NCBI GenBank assembly: GCA_965197885.1
Contig: OZ240231.1
Span: 192,504-256,503 of the forward strand
Length of the DNA stretch: 64,000 nucleotides
Direction: 5' to 3'
Origin: Thermodesulfobacteriota bacterium
GTDB taxonomy: Bacteria > Desulfobacterota_D > UBA1144 > Nemesobacterales > Nemesobacteraceae
In this document: piece after piece, positions 421 through 63,845 of the stretch
Layout: each line of letters opens with the position of its first letter
How positions within the stretch are numbered: position 1 is the first letter of the stretch
Notes under the pieces: model-generated
What the model was told of the DNA's origin: nothing
The model's database searches: none
What the model saw: only the letters and a program-made list of their open reading frames with translations
Position numbers and translations under genes: made by a program

Positions 421-3400
421 ATGAAAGTAACAACACGCGGGGACGACAACGCTTTTTCTCAACGGAAGGCGAGTATCCTTAGATCTTGCCATGCTTTCTG
501 TGGAATGAGATCAGCTGCGACGTCATTTTTTATTGCTGGCGTGCTTGTCCTCGTTCTGATTCTGGTCGGGTGTGGCAGTGACACCACACCTTCCGAATCT
601 CCCGATCCCGACAATCCCGCGTACAGAGACACTGACCCCGGTGTCCCGCCTCCAACGGTCTCCGACCCCGGTGTCCCGCCGCCAACGGTCCCCGACCCCG
701 ATGTCCCGCCTCCAACGGTCTCCGACCCCGGTGTCCCGCCTCCAACGGTCTCCGACCCCGGTGTCCCGCCTCCAACGGTCTCCGACCCCGGTGTCCCGCC
801 GCCAACGGTTCCCGACCCCGGTGTCCCGCCGCCAACGGTCTCCGACCCCGAGGATCCACCGCCAACGGTCCCCGTGATACACACAACACGACTGGATCAA
901 TCCATCACCTTTAACATACAGGATAGTGACCCTCTGAATGACCGGATTCTGAGGCAACCCCAGCAAGGAACGGTGATTTTGAATGCCGACGGCTCCGTTA
1001 CCTACTCGCCCGCACCCGGGGCTGTGGGAGAAGACAGCTTCGAAATTGAAATTAACGGAATCCCACGGGAGATCACCATTAATAACAACCTCGCTTATGA
1101 AGGCCAGATTGACGGCGGGGTGGACTCCTTCGGGAACGTTGAAGTGCTGTTGACGGGGGACGGAGTATTGGAAACCGCGTCGCCGGACGCTTCCGGCAGG
1201 TTCAGGTTCTACACGTTGCCGGACGGCGACTATGTCGTCAAGGTGCGGAAAGCGGGCTACACGTCATCGCTTGCCCGAGCGTTCAGCCTGGATATCGGGC
1301 AGCATGATTCTTTGCGTGATGGGATCGACCAGTTTGTTCTGGAAGCGATCGATTCGGATACCTTTGTCTATCACTGGGAGGAAGATCAGAGTGCGGCCGG
1401 CTATGATTATGCGGCCCATGTGAACCAACCCGTGGTCGTGGAGTTTCTGGATGAGCAGGTTGAGGTGGTCGACGGAGCGTCAGCCAGCCAGCTCCATCAC
1501 GACTACAACATCCTGCTGGTCGATTCGGAAAGCGGTTCATGGACACAAGAGCATGCCTACCGCCTTCTGGAAACCATGAAGTCCATCCCGCAGAAGCGGC
1601 GGGATCCCTATAAGGAACAGAGCCTTCCCGCAAGCAAGTGGCTCCTTGCTTCCGACCACCTGGAGGATGACATCCGGATTACACATCATCAGGACGAAAA
1701 CTACAGGGCCGTTCTCATTTCCGAAGATGCCTTCGTCAATGCCAGCCCCCGGATCGCCAGGGTTGAAGGCAAGCGAGGCATCTACTACTCACAACGTCTG
1801 CACCACGCGCTGGTGCGCTTCGTCACGGATAACGGCAGGGATGAAGCGGCGTACGAAGGGATTTTCCAGTCGCGTTACGGCGTCACGACTCGCATACCGG
1901 ATTATACCCAGCTCACCAGTTCCACCACCAGCGAGTCCGCGTCGCGCTTTCAGGAATTCCACCCCGAAGAGATCGTCCAATTGATCAATATGTTTGAGGA
2001 AATGCCCAGGGGGATGCACAAACTGCCTGAGCTGCAGTATCTGGTGCGGCGCTTGGACGGCACGCCGCACCCTAGATATCCTACTGCGCCTGCGGTGGCT
2101 TGGCCCGATTACGGCTATATCGAGTTCATGGAAAGCGGGTTCAGCGGGTTTTCCGTTGCCTACGTCCATCGCCTCATCATTCACGAAAAGGCGCATTTCC
2201 TGTGGGCCCATCAGTTCGACGGGCAACTCAAGCAGGACTGGATCGAATTAGGCGGCTGGTACCACGACTCGGAAAGTCTCAATGGTTGGTCGACGAGCAA
2301 GCAAACGGAGTTTGTCTCCGCCTACGCCCACTCAAAAGATCCAAATGAGGACATGGCCGAGTCCATCGCCTACTTCATCGTGAATCCGGACAAGCTGAAA
2401 TCCCGAGCCATCGGCAAGTACGAGTTCGTCCGCGACCGCATCATGCAAGGCAACATCTACATCTCCACCATCCGAGAAGACCTGACCTTTGAGGTATATA
2501 ACCTGTATCCCGACTACGTCTTTCCGGGCAAGATCCGGCGAGTGGATATTGTGGTCGAGGGGGAGGTGGAGGACGACAAAACAATCCATGTGGAAATTGA
2601 GTTACATGCCCTGGATGAGGAGTCAGAAGGAGCGAAACACGCCCTTATGCGCATTTTCAGCGAGACCGGCACCTTGGTGGACCTGTACCTCTACCCCATG
2701 GATGCGAACGGCAACCGGCTGACTCAGGGCACGGTGCTCAAAGGCAGCTTTGCTCTCAGCAAGCACGCCAAGACCGGTTACTGGCGGCCCAACCAGATCG
2801 TCATCACGGATGCGGTTGGCAACGAGCGGTTCGAAGGGGTGAATGACTTTGGGTGGAAACTCTACGTCGGCAACCTGCTTGAGGATCTCACCGCTCCCGA
2901 GTATGTGGGCAGTACGGCGTCACTGAGCAAGAGCGTGACGAGCTTGGAAGGCCGGGAGGTTCAGTTGATTCATGCGACCTGGGAGGTGGATGAGGACACG
3001 GCAATGCGGGGACGGGCACCTTGTTATGCCAGCCTGAATGATGATTTTCTGCAAACCTACAGGTATGAAGAGCATGGTTTGTATGACCCAGCCAGCAGTC
3101 TGTGTCAGGTGGACTTTATTATGCCTCACTACATGCCTAGTTCCATCTACAGGATGAATTACATCATCATGATCGACGAGGCACTGAATAGACAGGGGGT
3201 CTACTTCACCCATCCTGGGCACGGTCTGCGTCCGGAGGAAAGTATCGTGGATGAAACGCCCCAGCAAATTGAGCTGGTAACCGACAATCCGGACCTTGAA
3301 CCCCCTGAGTTGGATATCAACGACATTCAGATCGATGCCGAGCCCACCTATCCGGATGCGCCAAATGGCGAAACCCTGGTGACGATCACCTTTCGTGTCA

Positions 3401-3669
3401 GGGACAACATATCTGGTTACAAGATCGCAAGCATGGAGCTACGCGACCCCCAAGGCATCGAGCATCAAGGCTATCACTATCATGCGGGTCGCTCCCGATT
3501 ATTCCCCGAAGGCGATCCTACCGATTGGACCACTTACACCCAAACGGTGCTCCTGCCGCCGGGTTCCGCACCCGGTACTTGGGGACTGGCCGAGATGACG
3601 ATTAGGGACCGTGCGGGCAACTTCCAGCGCTACGATTTCACCGAGATCATCCACTTCGATGTATATTAG
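421..3669 (+). CDS. secreted lipoprotein with PT-rich decapeptide repeats, a CarboxypepD_reg-like domain and a putative zinc-metallopeptidase HExxH motif
   Basis: 1082-aa ORF. Lipoprotein-type signal (LVLVLILVGCGSD). 8x [ST/P]DPGVPPPTV repeats. GNVEVLLTGDGVLETASPDASGRFRFYTLPDGDYVVKVRKAGY resembles carboxypeptidase regulatory-like domains. IIHEKAHFLW contains HExxH. GC content is visibly higher than the neighbouring genes. Confidence 0.8.
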   Translation: MKVTTRGDDNAFSQRKASILRSCHAFCGMRSAATSFFIAGVLVLVLILVGCGSDTTPSESPDPDNPAYRDTDPGVPPPTVSDPGVPPPTVPDPDVPPPTVSDPGVPPPTVSDPGVPPPTVSDPGVPPPTVPDPGVPPPTVSDPEDPPPTVPVIHTTRLDQSITFNIQDSDPLNDRILRQPQQGTVILNADGSVTYSPAPGAVGEDSFEIEINGIPREITINNNLAYEGQIDGGVDSFGNVEVLLTGDGVLETASPDASGRFRFYTLPDGDYVVKVRKAGYTSSLARAFSLDIGQHDSLRDGIDQFVLEAIDSDTFVYHWEEDQSAAGYDYAAHVNQPVVVEFLDEQVEVVDGASASQLHHDYNILLVDSESGSWTQEHAYRLLETMKSIPQKRRDPYKEQSLPASKWLLASDHLEDDIRITHHQDENYRAVLISEDAFVNASPRIARVEGKRGIYYSQRLHHALVRFVTDNGRDEAAYEGIFQSRYGVTTRIPDYTQLTSSTTSESASRFQEFHPEEIVQLINMFEEMPRGMHKLPELQYLVRRLDGTPHPRYPTAPAVAWPDYGYIEFMESGFSGFSVAYVHRLIIHEKAHFLWAHQFDGQLKQDWIELGGWYHDSESLNGWSTSKQTEFVSAYAHSKDPNEDMAESIAYFIVNPDKLKSRAIGKYEFVRDRIMQGNIYISTIREDLTFEVYNLYPDYVFPGKIRRVDIVVEGEVEDDKTIHVEIELHALDEESEGAKHALMRIFSETGTLVDLYLYPMDANGNRLTQGTVLKGSFALSKHAKTGYWRPNQIVITDAVGNERFEGVNDFGWKLYVGNLLEDLTAPEYVGSTASLSKSVTSLEGREVQLIHATWEVDEDTAMRGRAPCYASLNDDFLQTYRYEEHGLYDPASSLCQVDFIMPHYMPSSIYRMNYIIMIDEALNRQGVYFTHPGHGLRPEESIVDETPQQIELVTDNPDLEPPELDINDIQIDAEPTYPDAPNGETLVTITFRVRDNISGYKIASMELRDPQGIEHQGYHYHAGRSRLFPEGDPTDWTTYTQTVLLPPGSAPGTWGLAEMTIRDRAGNFQRYDFTEIIHFDVY
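631..870 (+). repeat. 8 tandem copies of a 30-bp unit (tccgaccccggtgtcccgcc[tg]ccaacggtc) encoding xDPGVPPPTV
   Basis: Seen directly at 631, 661, 691, 721, 751, 781, 811 and 841; the units differ by only 1-3 nt. Confidence 0.95.
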
Positions 3670-3847: not shown

Positions 3848-3876
3848 TTGAAAACCCGGCTCCGTATATTTATAAT
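3848..3876 (+). promoter_or_regulatory. sigma70-type promoter (TTGAAA - 17 nt - TATAAT) upstream of the rhodanese gene
   Basis: ttgaaa at 3848-3853, 17-nt spacer, tataat at 3871-3876; the first gene ATG is at 3904/3931. Confidence 0.6.
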
Positions 3877-3903
3877 TAACCAAATACAGTAAAAGGTTGC
3901 GCA

Positions 3904-4773
3904 ATGCGCGACCGAACGGAGGTTTTAGAGATGGCGGATTACGCGAACCCGGACGTTCTTGTGAGCACGGACTGGGTAGAAGAGCATATTGACGACCCCG
4001 ATATAGTTATTGTGGAATCGGATGAGGACATACTGCTCTATGAAATAGGTCACATAAGAAATTCAGTAAAATTCGACTGGCAGACCGAGCTTCAGGATCA
4101 GCTTGTAAGGGATTACGTGAGCAGGGAAAACTTCGAGACGCTGCTTTCCGAAAAAGGCATTTCCAATGACCACGCGGTGGTTTTCTACGGAGACAGAAGC
4201 AACTGGTGGGCGTGCTACGCCTTCTGGACCTTCAAGGTTCTCGGACACGAAAAGTGCCTTGTAATGGACGGTGGCAGGCAAAAATGGGCTGATGAGGGAA
4301 GAGAGTTCGTAAAAGATGTTCCCGAAAGACCAAAAACGGATTACAAGGTGTCGGCGATTGATGAGTCCATAAGGGCTTTTCGGAATGAGGTGATGGAGCA
4401 CATGGAGTCTTCAAGGCCGCTTGTCGATGTCCGCTCTCCGAAAGAGTACTCGGGAGAGCTTCTTCACATGGAGGCTTACCCCCAGGAAGGCGCGCTTCGC
4501 GGAGGACATATTCCGGGTGCGGTAAACGTTCCCTGGGCTACTGCTGCCAACGAAGACGGAACTTTCCGTTCGGCCGATGAGCTTGTCGAGATATATGAAA
4601 AGGGACAGGGGCTAAGCAAGGATCAGGACGTGATTGCCTACTGCAGAATAGGAGAGCGCTCTTCTCACACCTGGTTTGTTCTTACCTATCTTCTTGGATT
4701 TGAAAACGTCAGGAATTACGACGGTTCGTGGACCGAGTGGGGAAACCTTGTGAGGGCTCCCATAGAAAGATAA
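3904..4773 (+). CDS. sseA: thiosulfate/3-mercaptopyruvate sulfurtransferase (tandem rhodanese domains)
   Basis: Two rhodanese domains; active-site loop [12 protein letters not shown] is typical of SseA/CysA-type sulfurtransferases. An alternative start at 3931 (MADYANP...) has a better SD (GGAGG 8 nt upstream). Confidence 0.85.
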
Positions 4774-4804
4774 AAGGAGAAGCGTTTTTTATACGGATAA
4801 AAAA

Positions 4805-4840
4805 GGATGTGATCTTACGGGTCCGCATCCTTTTTTTTTT
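4805..4840 (+). terminator. rho-independent terminator-like hairpin followed by T10
   Basis: ggatgtgatcttacgggtccgcatcc stem-loop followed by tttttttttt at 4831-4840, 30 nt after the sseA stop; an A-run upstream allows bidirectional function. Confidence 0.55.
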
Positions 4841-4854
4841 GAGAGCATGCGAAT

Positions 4855-5280
4855 ATGGCCAACATAGAGGAAATAGTAAGGGAATTTCAAGGGGCGGATC
4901 GTCAGGAGATGATAGAGCTCCTGATAGATTATTCGGAAGGTCTTCCTGAAATTCCCAGAAGGTTTGCCGAGCTTGCGGACAGGGACCTCAACAAGGTGCA
5001 CGAGTGCGAAACCCCGGTCTTTATCTGGGTCGAGGTAGAAGACGGGAAGGCAAACATATTTGCCGACGTTCCCGAACCGTTTCCGACCGTGAGGGGGCTT
5101 GTATCGATTCTCGTAAGCGCTTTTGACGGACTCAGCCCGGAGGAGATCGAGTCTGCGCCAACGGACTTTATCTCCCGCCTCGGACTAGCCCAGCAACTGG
5201 GGATAAGAAGGGTCAGGGGTCTAAGCGCGGTTTATGCGAGGATAAAAAGCGAGGTCAGAAGGCACGGCACGGTCACATGA
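4855..5280 (+). CDS. sufE: SufE-like sulfur acceptor protein (Fe-S metabolism associated domain)
   Basis: 141 aa; KVHECETPVFIW matches the conserved Cys region of the SufE/CsdE family; size and acidic character fit. Confidence 0.6.
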   Translation: MANIEEIVREFQGADRQEMIELLIDYSEGLPEIPRRFAELADRDLNKVHECETPVFIWVEVEDGKANIFADVPEPFPTVRGLVSILVSAFDGLSPEEIESAPTDFISRLGLAQQLGIRRVRGLSAVYARIKSEVRRHGTVT

Positions 5281-5666
5281 TTGAAGAAGACAGAATGAAG
5301 ATGATCATGGATCATTACGAGAATCCGAGGAATTTCGGCGCCCTGGACCGCCCCACGGTGACTCTCAGAGGCGGCAACCCCAATTGCGGCGACACCATAA
5401 ATATCTATATCCGCATGGACGGCGAAAACATTATAGAAGATATAAGTTTTGACGGGGAAGGCTGCACAATAAGTCAGGCCGCAGCTTCTCTTCTTACGGA
5501 CTTCGTAAAGGGAAAGACCGTCGAGCGGGTCGGGGAGCTGGATTCCGATTACCTGAAGGAACTTCTTGGCAAGGACATCATGGTAACCCGTCCGAAATGC
5601 AGCCGTCTTGCCCTTGAAACCCTTAAATCCTGGGTCAGAGGTTTTGGGAAGGGAAAAACCGCCTGA
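5277..5666 (+). CDS. sufU: NifU/IscU/SufU-like Fe-S cluster scaffold / sulfurtransferase
   Basis: DHYENPRNFG...NPNCGDTINIY...GEGCTISQAAAS...RPKCSRLALE: the three conserved Cys of the U-type scaffold. ATGA overlap with the sufE stop. Confidence 0.8.
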   Translation: MIEEDRMKMIMDHYENPRNFGALDRPTVTLRGGNPNCGDTINIYIRMDGENIIEDISFDGEGCTISQAAASLLTDFVKGKTVERVGELDSDYLKELLGKDIMVTRPKCSRLALETLKSWVRGFGKGKTA

Positions 5667-5718
5667 TTTTGTGTATAATTCACGGTAATACTCAAGCAGA
5701 CCCAAGGAGATTTAAATA

Positions 5719-7053
5719 ATGAAAAACGGCAAACTAGACAAAACGATTCTAAGTGAGAGAATCGAGGAGGCGCTTAAGTATCCGCTTTTCGATTCCATAT
5801 TCAACAGGCGCTCAAGAAGGTTCGGCCTCGGAATGGAGCTTAAAGACAGCACCCTTGAGTTCAAGTCGAATTACGCCCCCGTACCTCTGAGCGAGGTAGA
5901 GGAAGCGCTTTTGGTATGGGCCGGGACGGGGCTCACCGGGCTTTGCCTCGCCGATCTGCCGCCTGAGAACGGGATAGATCTTCTCTGCCAGTGGACGGGA
6001 AGAACCTGGCCTTCTGCGTGCAACAACCACGGAACAGAACTTTTTTTCACAAACGACGACGGACTCTACCACGTGGACGTGAAAAACATGCTCCCCAAGG
6101 AGCATGAGATTGATCTGTTTTTCAAGCTTTCCCGCGAGGAGAAAATCGCGAGGGTTCTCGAACTTTACAGGGAAAGCCTTAACAAGCTTGAGGACGGAAG
6201 GGCCGACATGCCTGACAAGATGCCCGGGCTCTTTGAGTTTAACCAGTGGAACGCCAACAAGCCCGGAACCACGCTTTTCGTTCCCGTCACCGACGTGACC
6301 GAGGAGTACCTGAATCTTCTCACCCTTTACTGCAGTCACACCTACGGATTCACGATTATCGACGATCTTACCGGAAAGCCCGCGGGCGTCGAGAAGTGGG
6401 TGGAAAAGGGCAGATTAAAGGGTGAAATCAAGCTTTCCCTATTTGATCTCGAGGTAAGGATTCTCACGGGACTTAACGTCGAACAGGCCTTTATAACCCA
6501 GAACATGGCGCTTGCCCTTCAGCCTCTGGGGCTTGCGGGATGGGCGTTTACGGGCTTTATTCCGAGGTTTGCCATGGGAGCCGCTCCGAACCTGTTCAGG
6601 GGACTTGGATTTCGATTTATCCAGCCGAAAAAGGGTACGATCGATCCTCCCACCACCGTTCCCGTAGGAAAAGACGGGGTTTTTGAAGCCTACTGTCCGC
6701 CTTACTATAAAAACATGGACGATGCGATCGATCATTTCTTAGCACATAAATGGAAAGCTTGGGAGTCTGACAAGCCTTTCCCGTACACAGAACCCGACAG
6801 GCATCTCATGAAGGCCCCCAAACCCACGGAAACCACCATGCAGATCGTAAGGGATGTAGCGAACTATATTTATGACACTTACGGCAGATTCCCCGCATTC
6901 GTGGACCCCATGTACATGAGGCTTGTGTTTCAGGCGATGCACATAGATCTGGATTTCTACGACAAGTACTACCCGAAAGGTTCTTATTCGGACAGGCATC
7001 TAAGCACTTTTCTTGAGAATCATCCGGACCAGAGAGAACGGTTCGAAAAATAA
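5719..7053 (+). CDS. uncharacterised 444-aa protein, possibly nitroreductase-fold (SagB/ThcOx-like)
   Basis: N-terminal IFNRRSRRFGLG resembles the RRSxRxF signature of nitroreductase-superfamily proteins; the rest was not recognised. Co-oriented, closely spaced with neighbours. Confidence 0.5.
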   Translation: MKNGKLDKTILSERIEEALKYPLFDSIFNRRSRRFGLGMELKDSTLEFKSNYAPVPLSEVEEALLVWAGTGLTGLCLADLPPENGIDLLCQWTGRTWPSACNNHGTELFFTNDDGLYHVDVKNMLPKEHEIDLFFKLSREEKIARVLELYRESLNKLEDGRADMPDKMPGLFEFNQWNANKPGTTLFVPVTDVTEEYLNLLTLYCSHTYGFTIIDDLTGKPAGVEKWVEKGRLKGEIKLSLFDLEVRILTGLNVEQAFITQNMALALQPLGLAGWAFTGFIPRFAMGAAPNLFRGLGFRFIQPKKGTIDPPTTVPVGKDGVFEAYCPPYYKNMDDAIDHFLAHKWKAWESDKPFPYTEPDRHLMKAPKPTETTMQIVRDVANYIYDTYGRFPAFVDPMYMRLVFQAMHIDLDFYDKYYPKGSYSDRHLSTFLENHPDQRERFEK

Positions 7054-7105
7054 TATCGGCTTGCGGAGAAGCAAACTCGGCTTGCGGTAAGGAAGGAAAC
7101 CAGCC

Positions 7106-8380
7106 ATGCGCGTAGCGATTATCGGAAATGGGGTGACCGGGGTCGCAGCCGCCCTGCGCATACGCAAGCTGCAGCCCGACTGGGAGATCGTCATGATCTC
7201 GGGGGAATCTTCCTTTCACTATTCCCGCCCGGCGCTCATGTACATATTCATGGGTCACATGAGCTACGGGGACACCAAGCCCTACGAAGACAGTGTCTGG
7301 CGGAAAAACCGCATTGATCTGTTAAGGGGCTGGGTTACCGAGATTGATGCCGCCGGAAAAAAACTCATCATGCACGAAAAAGATTCCGTTGCGTTCGATA
7401 AGCTGCTTATCGCCACGGGATCAAAGTCCAACAAGTTCGGGTGGCCCGGTCAGGACCTTAAAGGCGTCCAGGGCCTCTACAGCCTTATGGATCTCAGGCT
7501 TCTTTACGAGAATGTAAAAGGCGCCCGAAGCGCCGTTATAGTCGGGGGAGGACTCATTGGAATTGAGTTTGCCGAGATGCTTCACTCACGCAATATCCAC
7601 GTTACTTTCCTGGTGAGGGAGCAGTCCTACTGGACGAATGTCCTTCCGATGGAGGAATCTCGGATGATAAACCGTGTGATCACCGAACAGGGGATTGATC
7701 TCAAGCTCACCACGGAACTTAAGGAAATAGTAGGGGACGATTCGGGAAGAGTACGGGGAGTTATGACTAATAAAGAGGAATTTATCGAAGCTCAGGTCGT
7801 CGGACTCACCGCGGGAGTAAGTCCCAACACCGCCCTTGCAAAGGCAAGCGATATAAAGACGGGGAGAGGGATACTGGTCGACTGGAGCTTCAGAACGGAT
7901 ATCCCGGATGTGTTTGCCGCGGGGGACTGCGCCGAGATAGTCACGGAAGGGGAGGGGAGGAACCTGATTCAGCAGGTCTGGTATACGGGCAAGAGCCAGG
8001 GAAGAGTGGCAGGAGAGGCTATAGCCGGAAAGCCAAGCGTTTATGACCCTGGAATATGGTATAACTCCGCAAAGTTTTTTGATCTCGAATACCAGACTTA
8101 CGGTACCGTGAGAAACGTTCCATTTGAGGAGGAAACCAATTTTTACTGGGAACACCCTGATCATAAGCGTTCCATAAGGATTGTTACCAGTGGTGAAGTG
8201 GTTTGCGGTATAAACGTCATGGGTCTTCGCTACAGTCACAGGGTCTGCGAGAGGTGGGTAGCGGAGAAAAGGTCCCTTGATTACGTGCTTGACAATCTTG
8301 GGGAGGCCAATTTTGATCCCGAGTTCTACGAAAAATGCGAAACGGAGATAATAAAGGAGATAAGGAAACAGGCTGCCTGA
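7106..8380 (+). CDS. FAD-dependent pyridine nucleotide-disulfide family oxidoreductase (ferredoxin/rubredoxin reductase-like)
   Basis: Two Rossmann dinucleotide motifs (VAIIGNGVTGVAAA and VIVGGGLIGIEFAE) and GDCAEI near the C-terminal third; no N-terminal redox-active Cys pair, so not CoA-disulfide reductase type. Confidence 0.8.
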   Translation: MRVAIIGNGVTGVAAALRIRKLQPDWEIVMISGESSFHYSRPALMYIFMGHMSYGDTKPYEDSVWRKNRIDLLRGWVTEIDAAGKKLIMHEKDSVAFDKLLIATGSKSNKFGWPGQDLKGVQGLYSLMDLRLLYENVKGARSAVIVGGGLIGIEFAEMLHSRNIHVTFLVREQSYWTNVLPMEESRMINRVITEQGIDLKLTTELKEIVGDDSGRVRGVMTNKEEFIEAQVVGLTAGVSPNTALAKASDIKTGRGILVDWSFRTDIPDVFAAGDCAEIVTEGEGRNLIQQVWYTGKSQGRVAGEAIAGKPSVYDPGIWYNSAKFFDLEYQTYGTVRNVPFEEETNFYWEHPDHKRSIRIVTSGEVVCGINVMGLRYSHRVCERWVAEKRSLDYVLDNLGEANFDPEFYEKCETEIIKEIRKQAA

Positions 8381-9774
8381 TGGAACAGAACACGACAGAT
8401 TACGATTTCGACGAAGAAACCCTGGGTTTTGAGGAACCGGAGAAAGCTCCGGCCACGCCGCTTGGCAACGGAGAAAAGCTTTCTCTTGCCGTCTTGGGAT
8501 TCGGAATATTGATGTTTGCGCTGCAGGCGCTGGGTATGCCTCCGGGCGGCACCTGGGCCGGGTTTCTCCTGGTCTTCCTTCCCGTTCTCTTCGGTACGGC
8601 GTTTTACTTCTACCTTGATTTCAAAGGCACCGTCCCGGGGATCAAGCATGATAACATCTACTTCAGGGGAATAACTTCCCGGGGAGCTCTGGGCTGGCTT
8701 ATAGGCGTGGTGTTTACCGGTTTCTACATAGCGCTTTACTGGTTTCCCGAATACCTGGCGGGGGGAATAAGTATTGTAAACCCGCTTTCAATTGCCCTTT
8801 CCGGTTCTCCGGCTAACAACTGGTTTTTCTACGGTTTTCTCTACACCGTAGCAGTTTTTATTTTCGGCATAAGAATGTTCATGAAATACAGGAATAACCG
8901 CTACCAGAAGATAAGAACGGCTTCGGTTATGTTCTTCCAGCTCGGGTTCGCCTTTCTCATCCCAAACATACTTATGCTGTTTAACCAGCCCGAGTTTTAT
9001 CTTAGCTACTTCTGGCCGCTTAAACCCGAATACCTGTTCCCGGGCACTTTAAGCTATTTTGTGAATCATCCCGGCGGTCTCGGGATGTTCCTTATTTTCT
9101 GGGGAGCCGTGATGACTTTTGTGGGCACTCCGCTGCTTACCTACTATTTCGGCAAGAGGTGGTACTGCTCGTGGGTGTGCGGATGCGGAGGGCTTGCGGA
9201 AACCATGGGGGACCCGTGGAGACAGCTCTCTGACAAATCGAAAAAGGCGTGGCGCTTTGAGCGCTGGATAGTACATTCCGTACTGGTGTTTATCGTCGTT
9301 ACAACGGTTCTTCTCTGGATTAACTCCGCGACCTCGGGAGCGGTGTTCGGAGAAGCGTCGATGTCTCTTAAGAAGTGGTACGGGTTCTACATCGGGGCCA
9401 TTTTCTCGGGGGTTATCGGCGTTGGTTTCTACCCCATGATGGGAGCCAGGGTGTGGTGCCGGTTCGGTTGCCCGATGGCGGCTGTGCTCGGGATTTTCCA
9501 GAGGTATCTCTCAAGATTCAGAATTACCACAAACGGCGACCAGTGCATGTCATGCGGGAACTGTTCCACCTACTGCGAGATGGGCATAGACGTCAGGGCT
9601 TACGCCCAGAAGGGCGAGAACATAGTGAGAGCGTCATGCGTCGGATGCGGAGTGTGCTCAGCCGTGTGTCCCAGGGGAGTGCTTAAGCTTGAAAACGGGG
9701 GGACTTTCAAGGACAGGTTCTCCGGGTCGGACAAGCCGCTTGGGGCGCTTATGGATTCGCTCAAACACGTTTAG
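8381..9774 (+). CDS. polytopic membrane polyferredoxin (NapH/MauN-like 4Fe-4S binding protein)
   Basis: Multiple TM helices; CSWVCGCGG motif; two C-terminal 4Fe-4S motifs (CMSCGNCSTYCEMG and CVGCGVCSAVCPRG). Start taken at the ATG right after the upstream stop at 8378-8380 rather than the track's 8335. Confidence 0.75.
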
Positions 9775-10014
9775 CTTTAAGGGAAGGACAGACTAAATAA
9801 GCCTCTGGCAATCAAAATAGTCTGTGGCACAGCACATTACGAGCGTCTCTCGTTCGCTTTCTTCGTGTAGAGTGACTTAAATCGATCCGCACTCTTGATA
9901 ACCAGATCTCTAGGGCTGAGTTGTTTTCCATAGTACGGAGAGAATCATAATCTGCCAAAAGTGTCGCATTCGGAGTTAATGGGAACCATTACCCGAAAAA
10001 ATGCTTATAAAGAA

Positions 10015-11286
10015 TTATCGACATCTTCCACCGGCATGTTCAAAGGCGGTGTTGCAATCGTGAACTCCACGACCCGCATGATCGCAGTCAAGCAGTCTTT
10101 CTTCAGTGCCGTTACAGGCTACATCGTCCAGCAAGAAACTGGTTGGCCCGGTGGTGGTTGTTGATGGCGACATGCTAAGAATAGGCTGCGCCCCTCTTGC
10201 GTCGAACATCTGGTCACACGCGACATCTACATCATAATTCCCCCATTCATCGTCACATATTCCCTTCCATTCCATATCCGTACTGTCATATATTTCAAAT
10301 CTACCTATCTTTTCATTCGCCCCTCCCACTAACCGAAGGTGGCCGTCGAAATAATCAGTATCCTCTTCACTGGGACTGGACCCCAGAGTAACCTCTTCCC
10401 CCGGATGGCTTTGGATCTTTTCTGAATTACCGGCACTATCCATGAAGCTTGCCTTCACCTTGATCTTTTTACCGAAATCTTCACGCCCGATAACATAGGT
10501 GGAATTTGCCGCGCCGGAAATATCGGACTCGTTATTAAGATTGTTAATCAGATGATTAACCCTTACCCACTCATAGCTGAAAGTTACATCCGTCGGAATC
10601 TCGTTGTCGTCCTCTATGTCCGAGACGTCCGCAGTCAGCGTCTGCCCGACCTCGTATTCACCCGTGATTGTCATGAGGCCGGCGGCGGTAGAGTTAGCGC
10701 TGCTGTCTGGAGCGGCACACCTGACGTGAAAATACTCTTGATTGAAGCAAATGTGAACTCCACGTCCTCCATGCCTGCAGTCAAGCAGCTTTCTCTCCGA
10801 ACCCGCGCATTCAAGATCGCTTAGTTCCATCCCCGGCACATTGCGTTGTACGGATGCAGGCGGTGTCCCATGGATGTAGTCATATGTCGTCGTCCCTCCC
10901 AAATAACCTAGCTGACGACATATAACCTCTGCCTCTTCAGTAGCGTACCGGCTATCTTCTATACCATCATCGCATATTCCCTTCCATTCCCCGGTACCGT
11001 CGCCATCCTCATCATCAAATATCTGAGGTCTGCCCGAGTAATCTGTTGAAACAGTGTCAAGTGAGTTTGTTTCCACCAATCGAAGATCGCCATCGCTATC
11101 GTCGGCGCTGGATAGAACTGGACCTCCCAGCAGTAAAAACCCTAGCAGCAGTACCGCCGCCATCGGGCAACCACGCAAGATGTCAAGAATCTTGGCCACC
11201 ACTCCCCCGCGCACACGCAAACGCGTCGCTTCATCATTCATATTTTCAGAACGGATTACCGATTTCCCTAAGCCTGTTTCTAACAT
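10015..11286 (-). CDS. secreted protein with two SRCR (scavenger receptor cysteine-rich)-like domains flanking a central beta-sandwich-like domain (paralog 1)
   Basis: DLRLVE...GRPQIFD...WKGICDDGIED...EAEVICRQLGY...LECAGSERKLLDCRHGGRGVHICF...VRC and HLRLVGG...GRFEIYD...WKGICDDEWG...VACDQM...VACNGTEERLLDCDHAGRGVHDC match the SRCR consensus. Signal peptide MAAVLLLGFLLLGGPVLSSA. Start chosen at the ATG with an AAGGAGG SD (11286). Confidence 0.8.
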   Translation of the reverse strand: MLETGLGKSVIRSENMNDEATRLRVRGGVVAKILDILRGCPMAAVLLLGFLLLGGPVLSSADDSDGDLRLVETNSLDTVSTDYSGRPQIFDDEDGDGTGEWKGICDDGIEDSRYATEEAEVICRQLGYLGGTTTYDYIHGTPPASVQRNVPGMELSDLECAGSERKLLDCRHGGRGVHICFNQEYFHVRCAAPDSSANSTAAGLMTITGEYEVGQTLTADVSDIEDDNEIPTDVTFSYEWVRVNHLINNLNNESDISGAANSTYVIGREDFGKKIKVKASFMDSAGNSEKIQSHPGEEVTLGSSPSEEDTDYFDGHLRLVGGANEKIGRFEIYDSTDMEWKGICDDEWGNYDVDVACDQMFDARGAQPILSMSPSTTTTGPTSFLLDDVACNGTEERLLDCDHAGRGVHDCNTAFEHAGGRCR

Positions 11287-11941
11287 TTTAGAGCCTCCTT
11301 TAAAAACACAACCGATGGCTAGCACTGCCTAGTCACTCCTAGTTTATTCTACTTCCCCACCTTGACCGCTGTCAAGTGGAGAAAGTGTAGGAACCATAAA
11401 TTCAGGCTTCTTGGTCTTGCAGACTGTGGAAGTACCGAGCGTAAAGCAGCAAAAATGTGGATAACGTCTTAAGTTTTTCGCAAATTTAAAAGGGAAGGAA
11501 GACGGCATTCCTTTATAAATCCGGCTAGATAAACAGTGCTCCCCAATTTATTTAACGGGAGGAAACACCGCCATCAGCAATTATACGACGAAGAGCCCCA
11601 AAAAGGTAATTCAGATAAACGAGAAGGAGCCTAGGCTTCACTTAAGCTCCCTTGTGACGGATGCTGAACAATCCTATGGAGGAAATTATCCATGAGATCA
11701 GGAGGCGGCCCCGGGTGGTTGAAGCTTTCCCCGATGGACAGAAAGGAGATAATTGAGGTAAGACAGCAAGATCAGATCAGATTTTTCAGGTTCGGAGACT
11801 CATGAGTCTTTGAACCTGAAACTGAAGAAACGCCAAAAACCCAGATTTGCGAAAAATTCCGAGCGCTGGCCTTTGCTGAGAACAGTTTCAGTGATGTCAT
11901 TTCTCAGTTCTTAGGAGAACCGAAGCGATTTCCCTGAACAT

Positions 11942-12485: not shown

Positions 12486-14041
12486 CTATGAAGCGTACGC
12501 CGTCGCCCTGCTTTCCCTTATGACCATGATTTTTATCTGTCCCGGATAAACGACCTCTTCTTCTATCTTCTTGGCTATTTCATGCGAGAGAATTGCTCCC
12601 TCCTCATCGCTTACCTGATCGCTTTCCACTATCACCCTTACCTCTCTTCCGGCCTGAATCGCATAGCATCTTTCAACGCCCGGAAAAGAACTCGCGACGC
12701 CTTCTATGCTCTCGATTCTTTTTACGTAGTTTTCATACGTTTCCCTCCTCGCTCCGGGGCGGGCAGCGGAAATAGCGTCGGCTGCCTGAACGAGAAGCGG
12801 CAGAACTCCCTGGGGCTGCGGGTCATGGGTTTTTTCAAGCGCGTCGATGATCTCAGGGGGCTCGCCGTATTTTTTGACGATATTAGTCCCTATGTCCACG
12901 TGGGAACCTTCAACTTCGTGATCAATCGCTTTTCCTATATCGTGGAGCAGGCCGGCCCTTTTCGCGAGCTTTTCGTCGTAGCCGATTTCAGAGGCAAGCA
13001 TTCCGCAGATAAATCCCACTTCAATCGAGTGGTTGAGTATGTTCTGCGAGTAGCTTGTTCTGTATTTAAGCATCCCGAGCTTGCTTATCAGGTCCGGATG
13101 CATGCCGCTTATGCCGAGGTCAAAAAGCGCTTTTTCCCCTTCTTTCTGTATTTCCTTTTCTACTTCCTTTTCAACCTCGGTTACCACTTCCTCAATCCTT
13201 GCGGGATGAATTCTCCCGTCAGCTATCAGCCGCTCAAGCGAAATTTTCGCCACTTCCCGCCTTATGGGATTAAAGCACGAAATCACGACCGTCTCGGGCG
13301 TGTCGTCGATAATGATGTCCACCCCGGTGCGAAGCTCTATGGAGCGGATGTTCCGTCCTTCTCGCCCGATAATCCTTCCTTTTACGTCGTCGCTTGGAAG
13401 ATTGACTACCGACACCGTTTTCTCGCTTGTGTATCTGCCGGAATATCTCTGAATGGCAAGAGATATGATATCCTTTGCCTTCCGCTCGGCGGCGGAATTG
13501 CACTCTTCCTCTATATACTTGAGTTTTTAGCCGCTTCGTGTCTCGCCTCATTTTCTACCAGGCTTACGAGTTCCGCTTTTGCCGCTTCGCGGGTAAGGCC
13601 TGATATCTCCTCTATTTTTCCCTTTATATCTTCAATGTTCTCATCAAGAGTCCTCTGCTTTTTTTCGGCGGCCAGATTCTTGCTTTCGAGTTCCGCCTGC
13701 ATTTCTTCAAGCGCCGCCTCTTTTTTATCAATCTCCTCGTATTTCATGCTGAGGCCATCTTCCCTAGCTTTGAGTTTCTTCTCGGTGGCAGAGAATTCCC
13801 TGCGTTTCTCACTCGACGTTCTCTGCATCTGGGAATTTTTGTCCTTGACGAGTTTCTTCGCCCTGTTCTCCGCCCTGTTTCTTACCTCTTCTGCTTTCTT
13901 CTCGGCCTCTTCGATTATAATCCGGGCCTGGTCCCGGCTTTTACGGACCCTGTTTTTTTCCATAACCATCCTGTAGATGAAATGGGCGGCGAATCCAAGC
14001 CCGAAGAGCAGTAAAAACCATAATGTTGATTGTACTTGCAT
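12486..14041 (-). pseudogene. rny: ribonuclease Y, reading frame broken by a 1-nt shift in an A5 (coding-strand) homopolymer at 13524-13528; may be a sequencing artefact
   Basis: ORF 13511-14041 encodes the TM plus coiled-coil N-terminus ending ...EARHEAAKNSSI*. ORF 12486-13415 encodes the KH and HD domains (VVNLPSDDVKGRIIGREGRNIR...LLHDIGKA). Inserting one A in the gctaaaaactc run gives the continuous read AAKKLKYIEEECNSAAERKAKDIISLAIQRYSGRYTSEKTVSVVNLPSDD, which matches the RNase Y linker. Confidence 0.7.
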
Positions 14042-15491: not shown

Positions 15492-18400
15492 CTACCATCT
15501 GAGGTCGCCCCGGAGCGCCACCGCGTGACTGGAGGGGAGGTCGGGGTTCTCGGTGCGGTCACCCTCAAGGCTGAGGTTAAAGGAGTCGCCGAGCCTAAGG
15601 CGCCATCCCGCCCTGTATCTCCTGTCCCCAGACATGGAGAACCCTCCGTAAGGAGTGATGACTCCTGAGCCCCCAAACGCCCCCATCGCGTAACCCGCCT
15701 CGGCGTCCAGTCGTCCCGGGGCCTGATCGCCTCCTGCAAGCCCCCGCGTATCCCCCATTGCCCAAAGACCCTCAACCCCGCTTGCAGTGGTTCCAACGGA
15801 TGAACCGAGCTTTGCCGAGAATCCCCTCTCCGCTCCCCCTGGAGCGAACTGCAGGGAACCCCCGGCTCCCCATTCTGAGTAGCCGCTTCGCTCATGAGCC
15901 ATGAGCCTTCGCGCTGTAATCTCCACCGTGAGTCCTCTTGAGGGGTTTATGTAGCGCATCGCGCCTCCCATTTCAAAACCCATGCCCCTCTCCGCGTCCC
16001 CTCCGTCTCGTCTCACTCCAAGCTCAACAGACGGGATGAGGGAACTTCCCGAAGCAAATGCAAAGGGTCGGGAACCCTCAAGTACAAGGCGAAGCCTGCT
16101 TACGTCGGCTTCTGTCTCCGTCATCCGGGAGGTTCCCTCTGAAGAGGTTCTCACTAAAAGCGCGTCTGTGCGGGCTGAGATATCAAATCCCCCGGCTGCA
16201 ACCAGGGCGCCCCGGGCCCCGAGGGCCGCCATCTTCATTTCAATATCGGTTTTCTCTCCTCCTCCTTCGTAGGTAAGGGTGAGTTCACCCTTACCGTAGC
16301 CGAGAAGGGTCCAGGCGCTTAAGCGATCGTTTAAGGAGAAGCGAAGGTATGGGTGAGCGCTTGTTATGGAGCTTTTAAGGTCTCCTTTTATATCACCTGA
16401 GTTGTAAGAGCCGTCTCCCGTGCTTCTCGCAAGGGCAAGGCCCAAAAGCACACGGTCCCACGCGCGGTCAACTCCCAGGGTTGCCGTGGTTACGTCTCCG
16501 TCAATTGAGAGGTCGGAATCTCGTCCCGAGAAACTCGTCCGTGCCGCTCCTCCCCACGCCGTCCATCCGGGCCCGGGGTTTTGGGTTGCGTTCTGGGCTA
16601 GGGAAACTTCAAAGGAAGAGCTGAGCAGGAACTCCCGCATCCTGAGGCTATTGAAGTTCTCGGGGCGGCGGTCCTCGGGAACCAGTTCATCCCATGGGGA
16701 TATTTCCGTTATCTCCGTGGCGGGAGGCTCTTTCAGTTCCGCGCCTCCAAGGGTTACTCCGCGTGAGGGCTCTTGGGCGGAGGACATCCTCCCTCTTACG
16801 GCTTCCACAGCGTGGTTTGCCACTGTGCGCCCGAAGCGGGCAAGCCACGCCTTGACGCTCCGCGCCTCCTGGTGGTCGGTCGTCGTGACCATGAACGCCT
16901 GCGTCGCCGTCAGCCCGCCGGGGTCCTGTGCCGTCACCGTCACCGTCGCCGTACCCGGACGCGTCGCGGTCAGCGTCAGCGTCGCGCCGGTGAGGTGCAA
17001 CGCCACTGCCTGATCCGACACGACGGCCGTGTAGTCGAGCGCGTCGCCGTCCCGGTCTGCGAAGAACGGGATCAGATCGAGCGCCACCGGCTCGTCTCCG
17101 ATATCCAGGGTCCGATCGGGGATGACGCCCGCTGCAAGCGGCGGGTCGTTCACCGGCCGCACCGTCACGTCCACCGCCGCCCGGGCCGTCAGTCCCGATC
17201 CGTCGCCCACGACGTAGGTGAAGCTGTCGGTGCCGTGAAAGTCAGGCTCCGGCGTGTACACCACCGCTCCTGTGTCGGTCACCGCCGTGCCGTGCGTCGG
17301 CGCCGATACCTCCACCAGCGCCAGCGCGTCCCCGTCGGGGTCGCTGTCGTTGCTGAGCACGTCGATGGTAACCGGCGTGTCCTCGGGCGTGTCCGCCGCG
17401 TCGTCACCCGCCAGCGGCGGGTCGTCCACCGGCAGCACCGTCACGTCCACCGCCGCCCGGGCCGTCAGTCCCGATCCGTCGCCCACGACGTAGGTGAAGC
17501 GGTCGGTGCCGTGAAAGTCAGGCTCCGGCGTGTACACCACCGCGCCTGTGTCCGACACCACCGCCGTGCCGTGGGTCGGCGCCGATACCTCCACCACCAC
17601 CAGCGTGTTCCTGTCGGGGTCGCTGTCGTTGCCGAGCACGTCGATGGTCACCGGCGTGTCTTCGGGCGTGTCCGCCGCGTCGTCGACCGCCCGCGGCGGG
17701 TTGTTCACCGGCGGCGGCGGGGTCGTCCTGATGCGCCCCGACGGCGACCAGGGACCGGTGCCATCACTATTGGTGGCGCGCACCTGCACCTGGTAGGCGG
17801 TGGGGGCGGCGGTCAGGCCCGCGATCGTGGCGCTGGTGCCGCCCACGCCTTGGGGGCCGGGGGTAAAGTCCCCGCTTGTGCCTTCCCGGTACTGCAGGTC
17901 GTAGCTAGAGATGTCCGGCCGGCCGGTGTTCGAGGGCGCGCTCCAGCTCACCGTCAGGCTGTCGGGCGTGCCGGGGGTCGCCGTGACTCTGGGCGTCGCG
18001 GGCGCCAGCGGCCGCTCGTTGACGTCGTTAGTGAGATCAATCGTCACCGTGACCGTGTCGGTGCCGCCGTTGCCGTCGTCGGCCTTCACGATCACCGTGT
18101 AGCTCGGCGTGGTCTCGTAGTCGTAGGTGACGCCGGGCCTCGTGCGGATCTGGCCGCTGGTCGAGACGATCGAGAACGACGACGCGTCCATGCCGCCCTC
18201 CAGGGTGTAGGTCAGCTGGTCGTTGTTGCCGTCGGTGGCGGTGACGGGGGCGCCGACATCGGTGTTGGCGGGGCTGTTCTCGGCGACGCTACGCGTGGCG
18301 GTCGAGGAGGAGAACGTCGGCGCGGAGTTGCCGGCGGTGTTGGTCTGCCCCGATCCAGACGGCGACCAGGGGCTGTTGCCATCACTATTGGTGGCCCGCA

Positions 18401-31275: not shown

Positions 31276-32265
31276 TTAGCCTGGAGAATCACGCAGTATT
31301 TCCTCCCTGATTTCCCTAAGCGTGAATCTGCGTGATTTAAGTTCATTTATTAATTTTATTCTTTCGACCATCTCCTGTGTGTAGAGTTGGTACCCGGCGT
31401 CGGTAACTTCGGCGACTTCAAGCAAACCTTCCTTGGTCCAGTGGCGTATGGCGGAATTTCTTTGGTTGACCAGTTTTGCCAGTTCGCCGATTTTAAGCAG
31501 AGGACCCTTGTTATCACCTGTATCCGTTCTGCCTTCAGCTGCCTTGAGATATATATCAAGTGAACGGTCAACTGCCCGCGCGATAATTTTCATGTAAGCG
31601 TCTTTAGAGCCGCCCAGCTGCGCTTTTTCAAGCGAGTCGATATAAGCCAACCGGTCACGTTTGCGTATTATTGCTGCCGGATAACCCGACATGAGCAGGA
31701 TCATGTTCATTAGGAGTCGTGCCGCGCGGCCGTTACCATCGGTAAACGGGTGGATGGTAACCAGGCGGTAATGAGCTTCCGCAGCCAATTCTACCGGGTG
31801 CAGGTCGATTGCCAGCTTGAGCCATTTCGCTAACCCGTTCATCAGGTCCGGCACTTTGCGCGGATTTGGCGGCACCACCATCGAACCGGAGATTCGCACC
31901 GGCGTCACGCGATAACGACCGGCATTTAGATCATCAATGCCTTTCATAATAAGATAGTGGATATGCAGGATGTCCTCTTCGGTCAGCGAACGCGTCCCGC
32001 GTTTGGCTTGTTCTTTCACCCAGTCCAGGGCACGGACGTGGTTTACGGCTTCCATGTGCTCCAGAAGTGATTTCCCCCCGATGGTGAGACCTTTTTCGAC
32101 CACCAGCGCGGTTTCACGGCGACCTAGCGTATTTCCTTCAATTGCGTTACTCGTGTAGGTCAACTCAACCCGAAACCATCCATCCAGATTGCTTAGGAGT
32201 GCGTCAGGCAGCGGTCCATACTCATCCAGCAACCTTTTTTTTGCGGTCAGGTTTTCGTATTTCAT
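31276..32265 (-). CDS. Fic-family protein (AMPylator-type HPFxxGNGR motif) with C-terminal MerR-like HTH
   Basis: HPFTDGNGRAARLLMNMILLMSGYP Fic motif; C-terminal IGELAKLVNQRNSAIRHWTKEGLL...LREI resembles a MerR-type HTH. Confidence 0.85.
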   Translation of the reverse strand: MKYENLTAKKRLLDEYGPLPDALLSNLDGWFRVELTYTSNAIEGNTLGRRETALVVEKGLTIGGKSLLEHMEAVNHVRALDWVKEQAKRGTRSLTEEDILHIHYLIMKGIDDLNAGRYRVTPVRISGSMVVPPNPRKVPDLMNGLAKWLKLAIDLHPVELAAEAHYRLVTIHPFTDGNGRAARLLMNMILLMSGYPAAIIRKRDRLAYIDSLEKAQLGGSKDAYMKIIARAVDRSLDIYLKAAEGRTDTGDNKGPLLKIGELAKLVNQRNSAIRHWTKEGLLEVAEVTDAGYQLYTQEMVERIKLINELKSRRFTLREIREEILRDSPG

Positions 32266-63732: not shown

Positions 63733-63845
63733 TAGGGTGGCTATGCTAAAGGGGAAGCACCCGGTCCCATCCCGAACCCGGAAGTTAAGTCCTTACAGGC
63801 CGATGATACTGCTCCTTTCAGGAGTGGGAAAGTAGGTAGCTGCCC
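63733..63845 (+). rRNA. rrf: 5S ribosomal RNA (not adjacent to a 23S gene within this window)
   Basis: ...ccggtcccatcccgaacccggaagttaagt...gccgatgatactg...gggaaagtaggtagctgcc reproduces the universally conserved 5S loop sequences; 5' GGTGGCTA pairs with 3' TAGCTGCC (two G-U pairs) to form helix I. A T-run follows. Confidence 0.85.

Follow-up and report, generated by a model that had tools for sequence, protein, structure and literature searches.

A 64-kb stretch of a Thermodesulfobacteriota genome (64,000 nucleotides of contig OZ240231.1; this whole stretch is called the window throughout) contains six open reading frames (ORFs) on the + strand, which encode a two-domain rhodanese (g1), a SufE-like protein (g2), a SufU-like protein (g3), a 444-amino-acid (444-aa) protein (g4), an FAD reductase (g5), and a membrane polyferredoxin (g6). 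In a sequence-only reading, these genes had been described as a co-transcribed-looking module that would serve a sulfane-sulfur relay. Our analysis instead points to two transcription units, unit A (g1 to g3) and unit B (g4 to g6), which lie in an old neighborhood shared among Dadabacteria and do not form an obligate six-gene pathway; we give this interpretation an even chance of being correct. Thiol, Fe-S, and redox homeostasis is a plausible common theme of both units, and the coupling between them is probably not obligatory. The ORF list confirmed the common strand, the overlaps, and the short gaps on which the module had been based, and the accompanying suggestion of "one or two operons" is supported. 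A terminator after g1 and a TATAAT box upstream of g4, both of which had been missed, argue against co-transcription of all six genes, and g1 most likely starts at 3931 instead of 3904.

The consensus sigma70 promoter that had been noted upstream of g1 (P1, TTGAAA-17 nt-TATAAT; 3848 to 3876, + strand) matched 11 of 12 consensus positions and was kept in 24 relatives. Downstream of g1 lies an intrinsic terminator (T1; 4799 to 4840, + strand), which comprises an A-tract, a GC-rich hairpin (4805 to 4830), and a run of 10 T residues (4831 to 4840). The region from 4771 to 4857 was predicted to fold with a ΔG of -23.3 kcal/mol (z = -3.2), and T1 was present in relatives with compensatory changes in the stem, including loci L024 and L025 and the more distant L032 and L033. 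Since T1 follows g1 and ends only 14 nt before the ATG of g2, g2 and g3 would be reachable only by read-through. A putative second promoter (P2; 5670 to 5679, + strand) consists of TGTG followed by TATAAT (-10 box at 5674 to 5679) and resembles an extended -10 element. TATAAT or TATACT was kept upstream of g4 in every clade examined, including the clade at 70% identity, and the canonical TGnTATAAT was found in about half of the relatives. Because of the conserved terminator after g1 and the conserved TATAAT upstream of g4, the most economical and likely layout is that P1 drives g1 up to T1, with read-through into g2 and g3, and that P2 then drives g4, g5, and g6. The products of g2 and g3 would accordingly be made at a lower level.

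Genes overlap in both units, and those of unit B are closely spaced. The stop codon of g2 and the start codon of g3 overlap in an ATGA at 5277 to 5280, and g5 and g6 share 1 bp (TGATG) if g6 starts at 8380, both as previously described. The spacer between g4 and g5 measures 52 nt in the window and about 51 to 56 nt in most close relatives, in each case without a T-run; in L072 and L022, g4 overlaps g5. The direct repeat that had been reported before g5 was found as two copies of TCGGCTTGCGG in this spacer (7056 to 7066 and 7077 to 7087, + strand), with no T-run after it. Only the window has it as an exact repeat; L003 shows one mismatch, and in other relatives the repeat has diverged. A weak terminator-like hairpin downstream of g6 (9839 to 9856, + strand) was seen in a consensus scan only.

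Conservation of the six-gene order beyond the window's own clade was largely not borne out by a search of the neighborhoods of related genes. One genome per species was scanned with the g4 alignment, and 461 genomes encoded a g4 relative; the counts given here refer to the best 80 of these 461 g4-matching species genomes, taken as 80 loci, and these are not phylogenetically independent. Nearly all of the 80 are labelled Candidatus Dadabacteria or Thermodesulfobacteriota metagenome-assembled genomes (MAGs), and the closest was 97% identical. Among the 25 loci with a g4 identity of at least 90%, rhodanese, SufE, and SufU genes were found upstream in 24, and the FAD reductase and polyferredoxin genes were found downstream in all 25. 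At 83 to 90% identity (7 loci), the three carriers were present in 4 to 5 loci and the redox pair was present in 2. The 40 loci at 75 to 83% identity included 2 with upstream carriers (no SufE) and 4 with the downstream pair, while all 8 loci below 75% (marine TMED58 type) had rhodanese and SufU without SufE upstream and none had the redox pair downstream. All six genes occurred together in 26 of the 80 loci, 24 of which belong to the window's own clade (at least 90% identity); outside this clade, they did so in 2 of 55 loci (L032 and L033, about 85% identity). Twelve loci contained rhodanese, SufU, and g4 without the redox pair, five contained g4 and the redox pair without the carriers, and neither partner set was found in 19 of the 60 loci with informative flanks. 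In many of the loci at 75 to 83% identity, g4 stood alone in the order ECF sigma, anti-sigma, g4, IHF-HU, and peptide deformylase, and the g5-g6 pair was found by itself in three other phyla. It had been argued from the sequence that separation of g4 and the polyferredoxin from the carriers in most relatives would speak for fortuitous adjacency. Such separation is largely what we observed; however, the pairwise links recur, and the adjacency is therefore not wholly fortuitous.

Proteins encoded by the two units

Annotation with profile models agreed with the earlier identification of a rhodanese with a CRIGERS loop, SufE-like and SufU-like proteins, an FAD oxidoreductase, and a polyferredoxin. 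The thiosulfate-sulfurtransferase-like rhodanese g1 (3931 to 4773, + strand) matched the Pfam Rhodanese model in two stretches (E = 3.6e-35), and its catalytic Cys sits in the C-terminal loop YCRIGERSS. The first ATG of the ORF is at 3904, but the true start is most likely the ATG at 3931, which gives a protein of 280 aa, because a conserved GGAGG ribosome-binding site (RBS; 3918 to 3922) precedes it and ATG 3904 falls inside a conserved hairpin of the 5′ untranslated region. This hairpin (3895 to 3913, + strand) stands directly before the RBS and was obtained by RNAalifold from 23 sequences; 3 of its 6 predicted pairs showed changes on both sides, and no Rfam family matched it. The SufE-like g2 (4855 to 5280, + strand; 141 aa) matched Pfam SufE (PF02657) with an E value of 7.6e-25 and 87.5 bits against a cut-off of 27, and remained below the cut-offs of the SufE and CsdE equivalogs (32 to 36 bits versus 136 to 160 bits). 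It has a single Cys, Cys51, and the persulfide-accepting Cys of E. coli SufE is likewise Cys51. The rhodanese-SufE pair was present in 29 of the 80 related loci.

The SufU/IscU-like U-type protein g3 (5277 to 5666, + strand; 129 aa) matched Pfam NifU_N (E = 4.9e-27) and passed the SufU model TIGR01994 with 96.1 bits (cut-off, 92.5), where only residues 8 to 91, the N-terminal two thirds, were aligned. Its ligand set consists of Cys37, Cys63, and Cys108 together with NPNCGD, and the three Cys and the Asp of CGD were kept in every clade. The SufU-specific insertion was not found in g3, in which Cys63 and Cys108 are separated by an IscU-like 45 residues; the corresponding spacing in Bacillus subtilis SufU is about 62 residues. 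In an alignment, the U-type proteins of the fetched loci split into two groups. Group A, which includes g3, is linked to rhodanese, carries the motif RPxC, and evolves fast while keeping all ligands: between clades, g3 was 36 to 57% identical where the rhodanese remained 69 to 79% identical. Group B (L002, L041, and L073) carries the motif PIRxKC and is linked to cysteine desulfurase, so that at least some Dadabacteria possess a conventional desulfurase/U-type pair. By this alignment, g3 belongs to a distinct rhodanese-associated U-type lineage, apart from the desulfurase-linked one of other Dadabacteria.

The lack of SufS and SufBCD nearby, a central point of the sequence-only reading, was corroborated. 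No cysteine desulfurase was found in the window by tblastn with a Dadabacteria Aminotran_5 protein, and none of the 24 syntenic relatives had a desulfurase cluster within ±10 kb. SufBCD was absent among the six genes (Pfam and NCBIfam) and among the other large ORFs of the 64-kb window (Pfam). In the proposed relay, the rhodanese would load sulfane sulfur, most likely from thiosulfate, onto the Cys of its CRIGERS loop. In analogy to SufE and SseA of Mycobacterium tuberculosis, g2 would dock on the rhodanese and take the persulfide on Cys51, and it would then hand the sulfur to the three-Cys protein g3 for the building or repair of Fe-S clusters without a cysteine desulfurase. That a U-type protein is dedicated to the unit and coupled to SufE suggests an Fe-S-type acceptor as the next recipient of the sulfur, and g1 to g3 constitute a compact system for probing desulfurase-independent sulfur supply. 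The sulfane-sulfur relay proposed earlier is supported in its carrier part, for which SseA-SufE of M. tuberculosis is a precedent (PMC12375888), but not as a single conserved six-gene pathway.

The first protein of unit B, g4 (5719 to 7053, + strand), belongs to an unannotated family and has no Pfam or NCBIfam match. It carries the motif RRSRRFG at residues 30 to 36 and a QNMALALQPLGLAGW helix. A word-indexed search retrieved 2239 homologues, all unnamed or "hypothetical," and an exhaustive profile search gave 1627 clusters at 50% identity with E ≤ 1e-3 and 180 with E ≤ 1e-30. PF00881 appeared only below threshold (E, 0.007 to 0.08) in a few relatives, in the central helix only, and not in g4 itself. 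When the g4 alignment was used as a profile against PDB sequences, nothing meaningful was retrieved, and hhalign aligned the g4 profile with E. coli NfsB and NfsA in the central helix only, with a probability of 15% for NfsA. By sequence comparison, g4 does not qualify as a member of the nitroreductase superfamily. A structure model from an alignment of 77 sequences, a third subfamily among them, reached a pLDDT (predicted local distance difference test) of 91.4 and a pTM (predicted template modeling score) of 0.91. The top five Foldseek matches of this model in the PDB were all nitroreductases (E, 2.7e-5 to 3.7e-4; prob 1.0), and the earlier term "nitroreductase-like" was therefore right at the level of the fold. 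The best match was 3hoi (E = 2.7e-5, prob 1.0, TM-score 0.63 on the target); 3hj9 and 8cqs were also matched, and ThcOx, BmdC, 3eo7, and McbC came next. As modeled, g4 has a nitroreductase (FMN) fold, and binding of FMN is predicted. The 77-sequence model superseded a first one built from 15 sequences, which had a pLDDT of 65 and Foldseek matches at E = 0.1 only. Cys101, considered as the catalytic residue, was invariant in the two closest subfamilies, not family-wide, and was rejected.

The genes around g4 relatives recurrently belong to redox functions. Directly upstream of a g4 paralogue with 55% identity, a Fur-family gene with PerR as its best score was found on the same strand in 28 loci, and a PerR-like gene lay within five genes of this paralogue in 33 loci, about three quarters of those with upstream sequence. 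Some of the loci also contained rubrerythrin, a luciferase-like protein, cytochrome c peroxidase, and OsmC. Judged from gene content, these loci look like a candidate peroxide-stress regulon. A Fur/PerR operator common to them and to the promoters of the window was searched for by eye, and no convincing palindrome was found, only a similar TGTGTAAT-type -10 region. The arrangement with the PerR-like gene was observed in L085, L086, and L090 (about 5746 to 11563), in L002 (9401 to 11305), and in 28 metagenome loci, and a small unannotated protein of about 106 aa is often encoded downstream of the paralogue. One member of the third subfamily overlaps an Fe-S (CCG) gene that is followed by an FAD_binding_4 gene; by domain content, this pair appears to be a redox partner set that is analogous, and not homologous, to g5-g6. 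Two related gammaproteobacterial members of the subfamily are divergent to soxXYZAB, and two others had uninformative contexts. L083 (6618 to 9358), which comes from a MAG labelled Thermoanaerobacter, has two DUF2148 ferredoxin-domain genes, then a full-length g4 relative, a 107-aa gene, and finally a truncated g4-family gene of 336 aa. A look at fusion partners of g4 relatives gave a single, uninformative fusion to MPAB_Lcp_cat. The recurring picture from these contexts suggests a family of redox enzymes tied to peroxide or redox stress that tend to adjoin Fe-S and flavin electron carriers, and g4 may have such a redox-stress role. The family is sizeable and has no Pfam or NCBIfam model; with its fold now assigned and a reproducible PerR-type neighborhood of the paralogue, it presents a target for functional work.

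The remaining genes of unit B encode a flavoprotein and its presumable membrane partner. The FAD/NAD(P)H oxidoreductase g5 (7106 to 8380, + strand) is of the ferredoxin/rubredoxin-reductase type, with Rossmann domains for FAD and NAD(P)H (Pyr_redox_2, PF07992; E = 5.8e-51, 174 bits). It contains a YSRPAL motif and has Cys residues only at 275, 367, 381, and 411, with no redox-active Cys pair and neither an N-terminal CxxxxC nor a Cys of the CoADR type. Its best NCBIfam matches were the ferredoxin/rubredoxin reductases HcaD and NorW, CoA-disulfide reductase, and NirB, all far below cut-off, and no named equivalog was reached (HcaD, 146 bits versus 450). The membrane polyferredoxin g6 (8380 to 9774, + strand) contains Fer4_5 motifs and a 2x[4Fe-4S] domain. 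The first ATG of its ORF is at 8335; with a start at 8380, the protein has 464 aa, as do the closest homologues. The protein has about seven transmembrane segments and 13 Cys, arranged as CX3CGC (CSWVCGC), CX3CP (CRFGCP), and two CxxCxxCxxxC motifs, and it scored below the NapH/MauN model TIGR02163 (56.9 bits versus 213). g6 homologues with about 60% identity abound in many phyla. In Engelhardtia mirabilis, a Zixibacteria MAG, and an Acidobacteriota MAG, a Pyr_redox_2 gene precedes the YccM/NapH-like g6 homologue with a 4-bp overlap (L087, 4661 to 7422; L088, 4733 to 7449; L089, 3445 to 6155), and these loci have unrelated neighbors and contain neither g4 nor the sulfur carriers. The occurrence of the pair in three other phyla and in unrelated contexts indicates that g5-g6 is an autonomous, widespread two-gene unit; it is conserved across phyla without an assigned function, and the literature on YccM/polyferredoxin and flavoprotein pairs gave no functional assignment. 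By architecture, the pair should pass electrons from NAD(P)H via FAD to membrane-bound Fe-S clusters. In the proposed path, NAD(P)H would reduce the FAD of g5, and electrons would move on to the [4Fe-4S] clusters of g6 and from g6 into the quinone pool of the membrane and/or onto the FMN of g4.

Alternative explanations of the gene order

All six proteins could instead form one route of reductive sulfur transfer or of Fe-S assembly and repair that replaces cysteine desulfurase. Rhodanese, SufE, and SufU would deliver S0, and g4 together with the NAD(P)H-FAD-polyferredoxin chain would supply electrons or Fe(II) to convert the persulfide into cluster sulfide. This is unlikely in our judgment, even though several observations fit it: in 24 of 25 close relatives as well as in L032 and L033, the six genes share one orientation and are separated by short gaps, g4 lies near rhodanese and SufU in all 8 loci of the deepest clade and in the metagenome loci L155, L158, L160, and L161, and a desulfurase is absent from the window. 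Reduction of a persulfide by a ferredoxin/ferredoxin-reductase pair is, moreover, established in the ISC system. However, the 2 of 55 loci outside the window's clade are few for an integrated pathway, g5-g6 is autonomous in other phyla, and many genomes have g4 by itself, flanked by sigma/anti-sigma and IHF/def genes. The conserved terminator and the separate promoter box split the region, opposite-strand genes lie between SufU and g4 in L029, L032, L033, L038, and L048, and other Dadabacteria carry the canonical desulfurase with its U-type partner. The stricter proposal of a self-contained, desulfurase-free Fe-S route, in which sulfur would pass from thiosulfate via rhodanese and the SufE-like protein to the SufU-like protein and reducing power would come from g4 and the NAD(P)H/polyferredoxin pair, appears quite improbable. 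If true, it would make the 444-aa family a new class of Fe-S/peroxide-stress enzymes, present in hundreds of species.

Inherited synteny without any functional relation would mean that g4 is a housekeeping or stress flavoenzyme that the carriers and the redox pair flank by chance in one lineage, and we also consider this unlikely. Synteny extends to the flanking genes (C7, C10, C14, C8, RNase Y, and 5-formyltetrahydrofolate [5-FTHF] cyclo-ligase) in the same 24 genomes, so that the six-gene conservation at ≥90% identity is shallow. In both distant clades, the rhodanese is found with the small upstream gene C7, and the 19 loci with neither partner set point in the same direction. Chance adjacency does not, however, account well for the recurrence of g4-g5-g6 in several loci at 75 to 83% identity, with unrelated genes upstream in L062, L071, and L072 and overlapping g4 and g5 in the last of these (in L074, g6 is degraded, and g5/g6 are matched in part or at another position). 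Nor does it account for a rhodanese-SufU-g4 order that is kept in the deepest clade despite entirely different downstream genes, or for the analogous Fe-S and flavoprotein pair whose genes overlap a g4 relative in another lineage. For unit A by itself, a role outside Fe-S metabolism (detoxification of cyanide or persulfide, H2S/redox signaling, or thiolation of cofactors or tRNA) seems very unlikely to us. The best-known role of SufE and U-type proteins is in Fe-S assembly, g3 retains its three cluster/zinc-ligand Cys and the CGD Asp throughout, and no thiolation enzyme of the ThiI, MnmA, MoeB, or TusA type was found in the cluster (ORF list, Pfam, and NCBIfam). Such a role would nevertheless suit the fast evolution of g3 and its partial coverage by the SufU model, and SseA-SufE of M. 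tuberculosis was assayed as a thiosulfate:cyanide sulfurtransferase and linked to oxidative-stress resistance (PMC12375888).

Several points also weigh against the two-unit interpretation and its Fe-S-directed relay. The authors of the SseA-SufE study favor a cyanide-detoxification/redox role and oxidative-stress resistance, not Fe-S biogenesis (PMC12375888), and the relay of unit A could end in Fe-S clusters, in thio-cofactors, or in detoxification. The -35 region of P2 is poor, and T1, the read-through, and P2 are all predicted from the sequence, as are the proposed direction of electron flow through g5 and g6 and any contact with g4. Finally, the rhodanese-SufU-g4 order that is kept down to the clade at 70% identity, together with the complete set in L032 and L033, could mean that units A and B are in fact functionally coupled.

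Other features of the window

An Rfam scan of the window detected no known RNA in the six-gene cluster, and its sole match was a 5S rRNA at 63733. Three proteins with SRCR domains are encoded on the - strand (10015 to 11325, 34781 to 36037, and 38730 to 40448; E about 1e-28 each). This eukaryote-like domain is typically found in host-associated (sponge) symbionts, and none of the 80 related loci has the copy at 10015. An ORF of 1799 aa (15492 to 20891, - strand) contains cadherin, fn3, Big_9, and PKD domains. Its stretch has a GC content of 66 to 67%, compared to about 50% elsewhere, occurs only in the window among the related loci, and looks from its composition like an island encoding an adhesin. 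The three SRCR proteins and this giant cadherin/fn3 protein fit a host-associated, sponge-type member of the Dadabacteria. The six genes were not discussed in the Dadabacteria genomics paper.

Upstream of P1, a 1082-aa protein (421 to 3669, + strand) with N-terminal tandem repeats of the PGVPPPTVSD type and Big_9/cadherin-like domains stands in the place of C7, which precedes the rhodanese in most relatives; this gene is shared with L007 only. RNase Y, about 518 aa long in relatives, is split in the window into ORFs of 309 aa (12486 to 13415) and 176 aa (13511 to 14041) on the - strand, which could be due to a frameshift, a pseudogene, or an assembly error. Two Fic/DOC-domain proteins are encoded on the - strand (31276 to 32265 and 48226 to 49392), one of them fused to a MerR helix-turn-helix domain and one with DUF4172.

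Comparison with known systems

Compared to the nitroreductase superfamily (BF3017/BT_0217-type members and large SagB/ThcOx-type members), the g4 model shares the core fold (Foldseek prob 1.0), an N-terminal RRSxR motif of the phosphate-binding type, and a central QN..LA..GLG helix. In contrast, members of the g4 family have about 440 aa, twice the length of classic nitroreductases, remain below the Pfam threshold, and possess conserved motifs of their own (GRTWP.ACN, PGLF.FN.WN, and YGRFPAF.DPM). Similarly, g6 has the multispan membrane domain, the CX3C(P) motifs, and the C-terminal 2x[4Fe-4S] domain of NapH, MauN, CcoG, and YccM. It differs from NapH/MauN by its approximately seven transmembrane segments (four in the family) and by one CX3CP and one CX3CGC motif in place of two CX3CP motifs. 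Its gene is always paired with a ferredoxin-reductase-type flavoprotein, and not with NapG or cbb3-oxidase genes as in these proteins.

Unit A resembles the SUF systems (SufS-SufE in E. coli and SufS-SufU in Bacillus) in that g2 is an acceptor of the SufE fold with an active Cys and g3 is a U-type protein with three Cys and an Asp that scores above the SufU cut-off. It departs from them because SufS and SufBCD are absent from the cluster and from the 64-kb window, and a rhodanese occupies the position of the donor. SufE and SufU, which are usually alternatives to each other, co-occur here, and g3 does not have the full length of the SufU insertion before its third Cys.

The closest precedent is found in M. 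tuberculosis, where the rhodanese SseA (Rv3283) was reported in 2025 to bind the SufE-like protein Rv3284 encoded by a neighboring gene in a 1:1 complex that activates SseA (PMC12375888). Rv3284 has a conserved Cys, and the regulatory loop of SseA comprises residues 185 to 201 (PMC12375888). The resemblance of g1-g2 to this pair lies in the gene organization. In both cases, a two-domain rhodanese with a C-terminal catalytic Cys adjoins a stand-alone SufE-like gene with a conserved Cys, no suf operon includes the pair, and there is a link to redox stress. The arrangement described here differs in that the SufE-like gene is translationally coupled to a SufU-like gene, a terminator separates rhodanese and SufE, and the host belongs to a different phylum. 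The requirement for a SufE activator was deemed peculiar to mycobacteria (PMC12375888); the rhodanese-SufE partnership has had experimental backing only since 2025, and its gene arrangement recurs here in an unrelated phylum.

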